In this document: positions 43,692 to 45,548 of the stretch, piece after piece | Layout of the letters: each line of letters opens with the position of its first letter | Numbering within the stretch: position 1 is the stretch's first letter | From: Escherichia phage vB_Eco_BGP | Strand: one strand, 5' to 3' | Length of the DNA: 64,000 bases | Sequence record: OZ035849 | Notes under the pieces: generated by a model | Databases searched by the model: none | Seen by the model: only the letters and a program-made list of their open reading frames with translations | What the model was told of the DNA's origin: nothing | Position numbers and translations under genes: made by a program

Positions 43692-44305
43692 TGATTAAAT
43701 TGGTATTCGCTTATTCTCCAACTAAAACCGTCGAAGGCTTTAATGAATTAGCATTCGGTTTAGGTGATGGCTTACCATGGGGACGAGTTAAAAAGGACCT
43801 CCAGAATTTTAAAGCTCGTACTGAAGGTACAATTATGATTATGGGTGCTAAAACGTTCCAGTCATTGCCTACATTACTTCCTGGTCGTAGCCATATTGTG
43901 GTGTGTGACCTTGCGCGTGATTATCCTGTAACTAAAGACGGCGATTTAGCACATTTCTATATTACATGGGAACAGTACATAACTTACATTTCTGGCGGCG
44001 AAATTCAAGTGTCAAGCCCTAACGCACCATTCGAGACTATGCTTGATCAGAATTCTAAAGTAAGCGTAATTGGCGGGCCTGCTCTGTTATATGCTGCGTT
44101 ACCTTATGCGGATGAAGTAGTTGTTTCTCGCATCGTTAAAAGGCATCGTGTTAATTCAACGGTTCAATTAGATGCAAGTTTTCTTGATGATATAAGCAAA
44201 CGTGAAATGGTTGAAAGTCATTGGTATAAAATAGATGAAGTAACAACCCTTACGGAATCAGTATATAAAAATGAAATACCGCGGGGTGGAAAATATGAAT
44301 TTTAA
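43691..44305 (+). CDS. frd: dihydrofolate reductase Frd (C-terminally extended)
   Basis: First 193 aa match T4 Frd (MIKLVF...TESVYK); this ORF continues 11 aa further ([11 protein letters not shown]). Confidence 0.88.
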
Positions 44306-44642
44306 TTATTACCCTATTCTATTAGAAAAAGACACGAAACAGCCAAAATGGCAAGGTCCTCAGTTTATTAAAGGTGTCTATCAATTAGTAGTTCCTAAAG
44401 ACAAGATTTATAGCAGTTGTTTCACTGAATCCGCTTGCAGTATTTTCGGTAATAGTTCTCCGTATTGGAATTTTGACATAAAGCTGGATAGAAATATCGA
44501 TATTTGGTTGAAAGCTATGGATATTGGTAATATTACGTTTGATAAGAATAATTATCATATTATTGGTCGCTTTTCCAAACGTGGTAAAGAATTATATTTC
44601 ACGCCTGAAATTGAGAGAAAATTTGATGCTAAACCGTATTGA
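44271..44642 (+). CDS. hypothetical protein inserted between frd and td (123 aa; alternative start 44295)
   Basis: ATG 44271 sits in a copy of the td start sequence (ATGAAATACC); second ATG at 44295 has SD GGTGGA; no recognisable domain. Confidence 0.5.
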
Positions 44643-44687
44643 TTATTTAGCTTCATAAAATGTATTATAATTTATATAAGGTACTAA

Positions 44688-45548
44688 ATGAAACAATACC
44701 AAGATTTAATTAAAGACATTTTTGAAAATGGCTATGAAACCGATGACCGAACAGGCACAGGAACAATTGCTTTGTTCGGTACTAAATTGCGTTGGGATTT
44801 AACAAAAGGTTTTCCTGCAGTAACAACTAAAAAGCTCGCCTGGAATGCATGCATTGCTGAGCTTCTATGGTTTATTTCCGGTTCTACCAATGTTAATGAT
44901 TTACGTCTTCGCACTCATGGCAGTCTTATTCAAGGTAAAACTATTTGGGACGATAACTATGAAAACCAAGCTAAAGACCTAGGATATCATAGTGGTGAAC
45001 TTGGTCCTATATACGGTAAACAATGGCGTGATTTCGGTGGTGTGGATCAATTAGTTGAAACTATTGATCGTATTAAAAAATTACCAACTGATCGACGTCA
45101 AATCGTTTCAGCATGGAATCCAGCTGAAATCAATCAAATGGCATTACCGCCCTGTCATATGTTCTATCAGTTTAATGTGCGTAATGGTTATCTTGATTTA
45201 CAATGGTACCAAAGAAGTGTAGATGTTTTCTTGGGATTGCCATTCAACATTGCCTCGTACGCTGCCTTGACGCATATTGTGGCTAAGATGTGTAATCTTA
45301 TCCCAGGAGATTTGATATTTTCTGGTGGTAATACTCACATCTATATGAATCATACTGAGCAATGTAAAGAAATTTTACGTCGTGAGCCTAAAGAACTGTG
45401 TGAACTTAAAATTGATTGGCCTATAGAGTTTGGAAATTGTGACACCGAAACACAGCTTTACTGGTTAACTGAATACATGAAACCGAAAGATTTTATCCTT
45501 GAAAATTATGAATCGCATCCAGCAATTAAAGGGAAAATGGCAATATGA
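44688..45548 (+). CDS. td: thymidylate synthase Td (no intron)
   Basis: 286 aa contiguous ORF; matches T4 Td spliced product. Confidence 0.95.

Follow-up and report, generated by a model that had tools for sequence, protein, structure and literature searches.

td.1 at the frd-td boundary of Escherichia phage vB_Eco_BGP, an accessory gene in a putative cassette slot of T-even-group phages

Free-standing homing endonuclease genes (segG, mobE and others) are known as insertions in T-even phages, in which a small open reading frame (ORF) is present or absent between conserved nucleotide-metabolism genes (PMC2790892, PMC2988022). Here, we analyzed the boundary between frd (dihydrofolate reductase) and td (thymidylate synthase) in 64,000 nucleotides (nt) of Escherichia phage vB_Eco_BGP (sequence record OZ035849), a stretch referred to below as the window. 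The boundary holds an accessory gene, td.1, which bears this name in the T2H and T6 records (GenBank AY262132.2, AY262134.2) and is listed under the name RB32ORF229c in the RB14 record, which describes it as 'flanked by 9 bp repeat'. Td.1 of T2H and T6 and RB32ORF229c of RB32, RB14 and RB51 were found to be the same gene at the same place as that of the window, with 98% amino-acid identity to the window protein (T2H Td.1 included). The frd-td segment is thus already annotated, and it is an accessory-gene gain/loss polymorphism of an ordinary kind rather than a new kind of element. The window differs from the T2H/T6 type in three respects: it is a five-A variant, its boundary repeat is 8 and not 9 base pairs (bp) long, and its Frd has 204 and not 193 residues. 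A search of a literature library revealed no paper there on td.1, RB32ORF229c or phrog_1928, the protein family to which td.1 belongs.

Comparison of public records indicated that the frd-td boundary is a cassette slot that exists in at least three allelic states: empty, occupied by td.1, or occupied by an unrelated ORF of 68 residues. In Tequatrovirus, the genus to which the window phage belongs (near RB14), roughly 68% of the records carried td.1 and 26% the 68-residue ORF, and about 6% the textbook frd-td overlap, which makes the T4 reference genome the odd one out. We found td.1 in 362 phage records, including T2 and T6; 14 of these, with 90-95% amino-acid identity, are Mosigviruses. The gene is therefore the majority allele of the genus, and not an insertion peculiar to the window phage. 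The same ORF and junction in T4 and its relatives, which the initial annotation took as the mark of an ancestral segment, were seen in part: relatives including T2 and T6 carry td.1, and T4 does not. The empty T4-type junction was present in at least 29 records, nearly all of them T4 strains or near relatives (RB55, RB59, 112, FL12, HY03, SG1, G2133, JEP6, G28, FL18). The 68-residue ORF (IME339 / ACG-C40 type) was present in about 135 records at an identity of at least 95%, always adjoining frd; in IME339 (L035, 1482-1688), ATGA fuses it to the stop of frd and TAATG to the start of td. The empty junction, TA(T/C)AAATGAAACAATA, was common to RB69, moskry (Mosigvirus), Bp7, 04086 (Dhakavirus) and RZ (Gaprivervirus), and this shared overlap makes the proposed originally overlapping junction plausible.

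Alignment to T4 and blastn of the window against the T4 locus revealed that a segment of 419 bp (44270-44688, plus strand, as are all features below; the boundary is ambiguous over TAAA) is absent from T4. In the window, the right copy of the boundary repeat, AAATGAAACAATACC, lies at 44686-44700, with the td ATG at 44688, and the left copy, AAAATGAAATACC, at 44268-44280. The exact shared repeat of the window phage is the 8-bp AAATGAAA, at 44269-44276 on the left and, as the td start context, at 44686-44693 on the right. In the alignments of T2, T6, Lutter and REP1, the exact repeat was the 9-mer TAAATGAAA, with the left junction GTATA[TAAATGAAA]TAACGCGTGGCGGAAA(A)TATG and the right junction GGTAC[TAAATGAAA]CAATACC. 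The T2-type sequence GTATA[TAAATGAAA]TAACGCG...GGTAC[TAAATGAAA]CAATACC, after subtraction of the interval and one repeat copy, is exactly that of T4, GTATA[TAAATGAAA]CAATACC. The repeat was found at both indel ends in every allele compared, and a match of 9 bp at fixed boundaries would arise by chance with a probability of about 1e-5, as estimated for the base composition of the window. The left copy matched the td start at 11/13 positions, and in T2-type phages it forms a two-codon vestigial ORF, ATG AAA TAA, that mimics this start. We rejected TACC as a part of the repeat; it is a substitution private to the window lineage, with TAAC in T2, RB3, Lutter and REP1 and TAGC in Shf125875. TAAATGAAA commonly serves as a gene-start context, also in this operon, and accordingly had 10 copies in the window where 3.9 would be expected; five other direct-repeat families (8-20 nt) were present in the same 561 bp as the boundary repeat. 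The repeat is meaningful only because its two copies fall precisely where the T4 alignment places the indel ends. The microhomology noticed at this junction thus held, since the repeat bounds the indel and the T4 junction is what remains after removal of the interval and one copy; all junction elements named in the initial annotation (the left near-copy, the right copy, the ORF of 115-123 residues, TATTATAAT and the Frd run-on) were found, about 1 nt away from the positions given there.

The gene td.1 (44295-44642) encodes a protein of 115 residues, or of 123 if read from an in-frame upstream ATG at 44271, and 108 of the 115 residues matched phrog_1928, a family of unknown function (E 3.3e-35). 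Within the genus, the ratio of nonsynonymous to synonymous substitution rates (dN/dS) was 0.03-0.18, and dS reached 0.29. These comparisons indicated that td.1 is a real protein-coding accessory gene under purifying selection, and the diversity in dS suggested that the allele is old. A HMMER search in 1.84 billion representative proteins revealed 15 clusters of the td.1 family. In an alignment of 18 sequences, the residues Q16, W19, G27, G91, K95, G97 and F102 were invariant; the conserved family motifs were Q.KW near the N-terminus, HG.Y, GN and GRF.K.G....F near the C-terminus. An AlphaFold2 model built from this alignment, with a predicted local distance difference test (pLDDT) value of 90 and a predicted template modelling (pTM) score of 0.83, contained eight strands and one helix. 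Td.1 is thus predicted to be small and β-rich, and the resemblance of the model to an OB fold was weak and not significant. The confident model matched no solved structure, and its fold matches in BFVD were confined to uncharacterised proteins of T4-like phages. Neither Td.1 nor the 18 family members had a match in Pfam or NCBIfam, and a PDB profile search with Td.1 revealed nothing relevant. The ORF initially described as one of unknown function thus belongs to a family already catalogued as phrog_1928 and td.1. Public records label td.1 'putative homing endonuclease', 'dihydrofolate reductase', 'putative glucose-1-phosphate adenylyltransferase' or 'reductase', none of which is supported, and the HY03 record labels frd and td as head proteins. 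Two IMG/VR contigs, L024 and L025, had a 2-3 nt deletion at the 3' end of td.1, where CCGTATTGA was changed to CCGTTGA or CCATTGA; as a result, the C-terminus ...AKPY* became ...AKPLI... and the ORF read on.

To place td.1 among more distant phages, tblastn was used, and it revealed homologues (26-47% identity) in the frd-td interval of at least nine genera, among them Kanagawavirus, Kagamiyamavirus, Winklervirus, Gelderlandvirus, Moonvirus, Roskildevirus and Jiaodavirus. These homologues were usually accompanied by a second ORF, orf2, which is a paralogue of td.1 and shares the family motifs; orf2 was present in 127 records of many genera, of which none belonged to the T-even group. In two Logan contigs, L018 and L019, td.1 was 63-66% identical to that of the window and formed part of the array frd-td.1-orf2-(orf3)-td, and in L018 and MY742, td.1, orf2 and a 68-residue orf3 stood in one array. 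The 68-residue ORF of IME339 showed 81% identity to orf3 of L018 and 43% identity to a Phapecoctavirus (phAPEC8-like) protein. The td.1 of the window had 43-47% identity to those of MY742 and PEi26. As the td.1 genes of L018 and L019 were themselves only 43-54% identical to those of MY742 and PEi26, td.1 of the window is closer to them than are the genes of their relatives as defined by the flanks. In the neighbour-joining tree of td.1, Tequatrovirus grouped with L018 and L019 (90% bootstrap), whereas in the Frd and Td trees these two contigs grouped with MY742 and PEi26 (99.7% and 100%) and Tequatrovirus stood far away. The relative rates in the td.1 comparison differed mildly, with 33/32/34% against 30/30% identity to six outgroups. 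The first 17 nt of td were identical between L018 and Tequatrovirus.

Within Mosigvirus, the td.1 alleles showed 88-90% DNA identity to those of Tequatrovirus and stood in two different contexts. Shf125875 had a Tequatrovirus-like frd, a five-A junction and a short spacer before td. In NHEP29, NHEP36 and SF, an RB69-type frd was joined directly to td.1 (GTATATAAATGAATTTT); the frd of NHEP29, quite different from that of Shf125875, had 97.6% DNA identity to the RB69 type and was fused at ATGAA to a td.1 98% identical to that of Shf125875, so that NHEP29 combines an RB69-type frd with a Shf125875-type td.1. The two Mosigvirus frd alleles were about 60% (L009, RB69; L017, moskry) and 86% (L034, Shf125875) identical in amino-acid sequence to Frd of the window, a divergence that points to allelic replacement at this locus.

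Taken together, we lean towards the inferred origin of the td.1 allele as an old recombinational insertion into an ATGA overlap. The T-even ancestor would have had an empty ATGA overlap at frd-td, and a Kanagawavirus-like phage of the T4 type would have donated td.1 from its homologous locus. One joint would lie just past the ATG AAA of the recipient, leaving a fossil td start behind frd, and the other at or within the conserved 5' end of td. Illegitimate recombination would convert the alleles into one another at an A-rich stop/start motif, (A)AATGA(A)(A), which is used by every gene of the operon; because the joints would fall at this motif, the cassette would be bounded by TAAATGAAA and its removal would regenerate the T4 junction exactly. 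Homology-facilitated illegitimate recombination and deletion between short direct repeats are both general mechanisms. Two features of the window phage are secondary: the gain of two A in the A-run, which removes the frd stop, and the 45-nt spacer, which supplies a ribosome-binding site for td and perhaps a middle promoter of the MotA type. The slot of T4 may never have been filled, or it may have been re-emptied by deletion between the 9-bp repeats. An empty ancestor was favoured by the frd end TAT AAA TGA, kept with its overlapping ATG in all three Tequatrovirus alleles, by the vestigial left copy with its 11/13 match to the td start, and by the empty junction shared by the sister genera. 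A foreign source of td.1 was favoured by its closeness to the genes of L018 and L019, at odds with the Frd and Td trees, and the fusion of td.1 to an RB69-type frd at ATGAA in NHEP29 was counted as the mechanism seen at work. The proposed insertion at an overlapping junction is thus plausible for the distant origin of the allele, but not as an event of the window phage, nor as a duplication in the style of a transposon.

Several results weigh against this origin. Since td.1 and a tandem paralogue also fill the frd-td interval of at least nine further genera, occupancy goes deep into the ancestry of the subfamily. Different members of the frd-td.1-orf2-orf3-td array, two in all, fill the slot in different Tequatrovirus lineages, which single deletions from one ancestral array would account for more simply, and as the 68-residue ORF matches the third gene of the array, the overlap of T4 may equally be a deleted form. 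Quartet informative-site counts (3-12 vs 7-12) gave no support for incongruence of td.1; given these ambiguous counts, the neighbour-joining result could reflect faster evolution in MY742 and PEi26. The filler from the left repeat to the td.1 start was considered as a copy of the 3' end of a donor frd and rejected, with alignment scores not better than those of shuffles (p 0.04-0.97), and the similarity of the spacer to orf2 was not significant. Additionally, the flanks of T4 were identical to those of the td.1-positive REP1 and Ge15, and the flanks of G28 showed 99.4% identity to td.1-positive phages against 98.0% to T4; the empty Tequatrovirus alleles, interspersed in this way among td.1 alleles, suggested recurrent deletion. 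Finally, the five-A run-on form of Frd was present in both Tequatrovirus and Mosigvirus, and it resembles the native frd/td.1 overlap of other genera.

A history of differential deletion, the reverse of the polarity first assumed, is a serious possibility, although we judge it somewhat short of probable. The T-even ancestor would have carried the full array frd-td.1-orf2-orf3-td, as in L018 and MY742, td.1 would have descended vertically, and the ATGA overlap of T4 would be derived: the T2/window type would have lost orf2-orf3, the IME339 / ACG-C40 type td.1-orf2, and T4, RB69, Bp7 and RZ everything, each loss occurring between AATGA(AA) motifs. Consistent with this, the divergence of the same-slot homologues in the nine or more genera roughly tracked that of the flanks (Frd 45-56%, td.1 29-47%, Td 71-82%), L018 and MY742 hold td.1, orf2 and the 68-residue orf3 together, and the IME339 ORF with its 81% identity to L018 orf3 has kept a native-type orf3/td overlap. 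The left side of td.1 resembled the native frd-tail/td.1 overlap of PEi26, MY742, EcS1, CHI14 and L019; of the two Tequatrovirus occupants, one thus looks native on its left (td.1) and the other on its right (the 68-residue ORF). The empty allele is rare in Tequatrovirus and nested among td.1 alleles on both flanks, and T4 also lacks 561 bp that the window has upstream of frd. Deletion between short direct repeats is, moreover, the classic deletion mechanism of T4, as in the rII deletions. However, at least four independent deletions with an identical junction would be needed, fixed in Dhakavirus, Gaprivervirus and most Mosigviruses. No intermediate was found: a record search revealed no orf2 homologue above 60% identity in any T-even-group record, and the six loci from a scan of IMG/VR for intermediates added nothing new. 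A history of this kind would also make a coincidence of the 9-bp (11/13) td-start copy that follows frd, and it would leave the closeness of td.1 to the genes of L018 and L019, beyond what the flanks predict, unexplained. Under insertion and deletion alike, the aligned junctions place the joints at the (A)AATGA(A)(A) stop/start motif.

We consider it very improbable that td.1 is an autonomous mobile element, be it a free-standing homing endonuclease gene or a transposon-like element with a 9-bp target-site duplication. The 9-bp direct repeat on both sides would fit such an element, as would the location of the indel, with conserved genes on both sides and many homing endonucleases in the region (PMC2790892), and the label 'putative homing endonuclease' in the records of AndreasVesalius, KarlGJung, FriedrichMiescher and AlbertHofmann (BASEL collection). 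In contrast, Pfam, NCBIfam and the PDB profile search revealed no nuclease domain or motif (GIY-YIG, HNH, LAGLIDADG, PD-(D/E)xK), the confident predicted model matched no nuclease fold, and its fold matches were limited to the uncharacterised T4-like phage proteins. The segment ends had no terminal inverted repeats, no transposase domain was found, and there is one copy per genome, so the 'target duplication' initially suggested is not supported in the sense of a transposon. The presence of td.1 was independent of the td intron and I-TevI, and the allele has not swept, with related genera lacking td.1. A link between td.1 absence and the td intron with I-TevI through co-conversion was likewise considered and rejected as a rule, because many of the roughly 200 records with the intron also carry td.1 (T6, Lutter, PST, NBG2, KarlGJung). 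A chance repeat or an assembly artefact is hardly credible. Direct repeats of 8-9 bp are common in the AT-rich window DNA and TAAATGAAA is a frequent start context, which would fit a chance match, but the segment occurs in 362 independent records with the repeat exactly at both indel ends in every allele compared, and these comparative data effectively refute either explanation.

On the left side of the segment, frd (43691-44305; Pfam DHFR_1, E 2e-19) encodes 204 residues, of which residues 1-193 match T4 Frd with 98.4% identity over 193 residues. The last 11 codons (44270-44302) form a run-on tail, and this tail overlaps the start of td.1 by 11 nt. The run-on begins in an A-run (44267-44271): three A, as in T2, T6, Lutter, REP1 and T4, bring a TGA into frame and end Frd at 193 residues, whereas the two extra A of the window remove this stop, so that Frd reads 11 more codons into td.1. 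The five-A form was shared by RB14, RB3/5/6/7/9/10, the ESh16 group and the Mosigvirus Shf125875. The tail residues varied among these relatives (NEITCGGKYEF in RB3, NEIATGGKYEF in Shf125875), and a functional extension was rejected, with PR, TC or AT at the variable residues and an end at 193 residues in most relatives; as the extra residues are not conserved, the extension is a by-product. The observation that Frd continues 11 codons past the end of T4 Frd was therefore correct, but the extension is a secondary slip of two A in the A-run and not a part of the insertion event. Upstream of the td.1 ATG, GGGGTGGAAAA (44283-44293) forms a Shine-Dalgarno-like region comparable to GGTGAAAAGCG / GGTGAAAAACG before td.1 of L018 and L019, a likeness too short for statistical significance.

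On the right side, a spacer of 45 nt (44643-44687) separates td.1 from td, and it contains AAGG (44678-44681), a Shine-Dalgarno sequence 6 nt before the ATG of td. In T4, frd and td overlap at ATGA with translational coupling; in the window, this overlap is broken: frd overlaps td.1 instead, and td is preceded by the 45-nt spacer with a Shine-Dalgarno sequence of its own. The spacer also holds a promoter-like element (44647-44674), in which a pattern scan revealed TTAGCTTCA, a MotA box-like sequence with one mismatch to TGCTT (A instead of T before GCTT), followed by TATAAT (44666-44671) at 10 nt or TAATTT (44669-44674) at 13 nt; TATTATAAT lies at 44663-44671. A MotA middle promoter has a (a/t)(a/t)(a/t)TGCTT(t/c)A box, whose centre lies near -30, and a TAnnnT -10 sequence about 12 bp downstream of it. 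The strict MotA pattern matched 8 sites in the window against 1.2 in shuffles and the relaxed pattern 11 against 4.1, and TTAGCTTCA passed only the latter. The strict matches, which are probably genuine middle promoters, lie elsewhere in the window, at 4898, 5348, 7448, 18584, 22948, 36414, 39553 and 58702. A sigma-70 promoter before td was rejected; the only candidate, TTGATT-18-TATTAT, matched at 9/12 positions and was no better than shuffles. In the Lutter record, a promoter is annotated at the position of the promoter-like element. A 30-nt indel (about 44647-44676) that includes the element is missing in the td.1 alleles of REP1, Ge15 and Mosigvirus, and the element is thus dispensable. 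As for the promoter-like element first noticed before td, TATTATAAT is present and a MotA-type promoter with one mismatch remains a candidate, but there is no sigma-70 match above shuffles and some relatives lack the element.

The short-spacer variants, with 13-15 nt instead of 45 and without the promoter-like 30 nt, were seen in REP1 (L028, 1948-1964), NHEP29 (L033, 1848-1864) and Shf125875 (L034, 1548-1562), and the spacers of REP1 (Tequatrovirus) and NHEP29 (Mosigvirus) were identical, TTATATAGGTGT. The 45-nt spacer had no second copy in the window and did not significantly resemble the sequence that follows td.1 in other genera. We also rejected the spacer as a stub of the orf2 paralogue (p at least 0.37); its likeness to orf2 was confined to the part overlapping the td.1 C-terminus, where the conservation of td.1 forces it.

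The 2-kb stretch around the frd-td junction was 100% identical to Escherichia phages slur03, slur08 and slur14 and 97-99% identical to many Tequatrovirus genomes (RB18, 98.0%). The td gene of the window (44688-45548; 286 residues) is intronless, in contrast to those of T4 and T6, which carry a group I intron with I-TevI. In its first 540 bp (44688-45227), td had at least two allele classes about 15% apart in Tequatrovirus, one in the window, RB14, Lutter and REP1 and the other in T4, T2, G28 and HY03, with a breakpoint about 75-100 bp into td between REP1 and T4. A second indel lies beside frd: between frd.1 and frd, the window has 561 bp (43114-43674) with two ORFs (43102-43434, 110 residues; 43446-43691, 81 residues), and T4 has only 33 bp. 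The ORF of 81 residues was also present in RB14, T2, G28 and HY03, and that of 110 residues apparently was not. Another indel in the same operon was seen in EcS1 (L011, 4015-4773, minus strand), where a homing endonuclease gene of opposite orientation lies between td and nrdA.

If the boundary acts as a slot of this kind, stop/start overlaps of the ATGA type would provide built-in microhomology, and accessory genes could be gained and lost without breaking the expression of their essential neighbours; this would be a modest addition to the understanding of accessory-gene shuffling in T4-like phages. A more far-reaching proposal, which we regard as unlikely, is that Td.1 and Orf2 represent a phage-specific fold without a solved relative, kept under purifying selection in the dTMP-synthesis operon of many Tevenvirinae, perhaps as an OB-like modulator of the frd and td products or of a host factor, and, as a separate point, that the frd-td slot, with its three alleles and retained stop/start coupling, could serve as a natural model of microhomology-guided cassette exchange at ATGA overlaps.

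Upon comparison with described systems, the closest counterparts outside the T-even group are the td.1/orf2 pairs of Kanagawavirus PEi26, MY742, Kagamiyamavirus EcS1, Winklervirus CHI14, Gelderlandvirus STML-198, Moonvirus Moon, Roskildevirus Cronus and Jiaodavirus Mineola, which share the slot, the family motifs and the style of frd-tail overlap with the window. These pairs show 29-47% identity to the gene of the window and mostly include the second paralogue and sometimes a third gene of 68 residues; unlike the window, none has a spacer or a promoter-like element before td. The insertions of the segG and mobE type represent the same kind of polymorphism as td.1, although td.1 lacks the domain, the fold and the motifs of a nuclease and shows no sign of a biased spread. 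The joints of this locus, here inferred from sequence alone, are like those of homology-facilitated illegitimate recombination, as they lie at microhomologies of 5-9 bp beside a conserved anchor, the 5' end of td.

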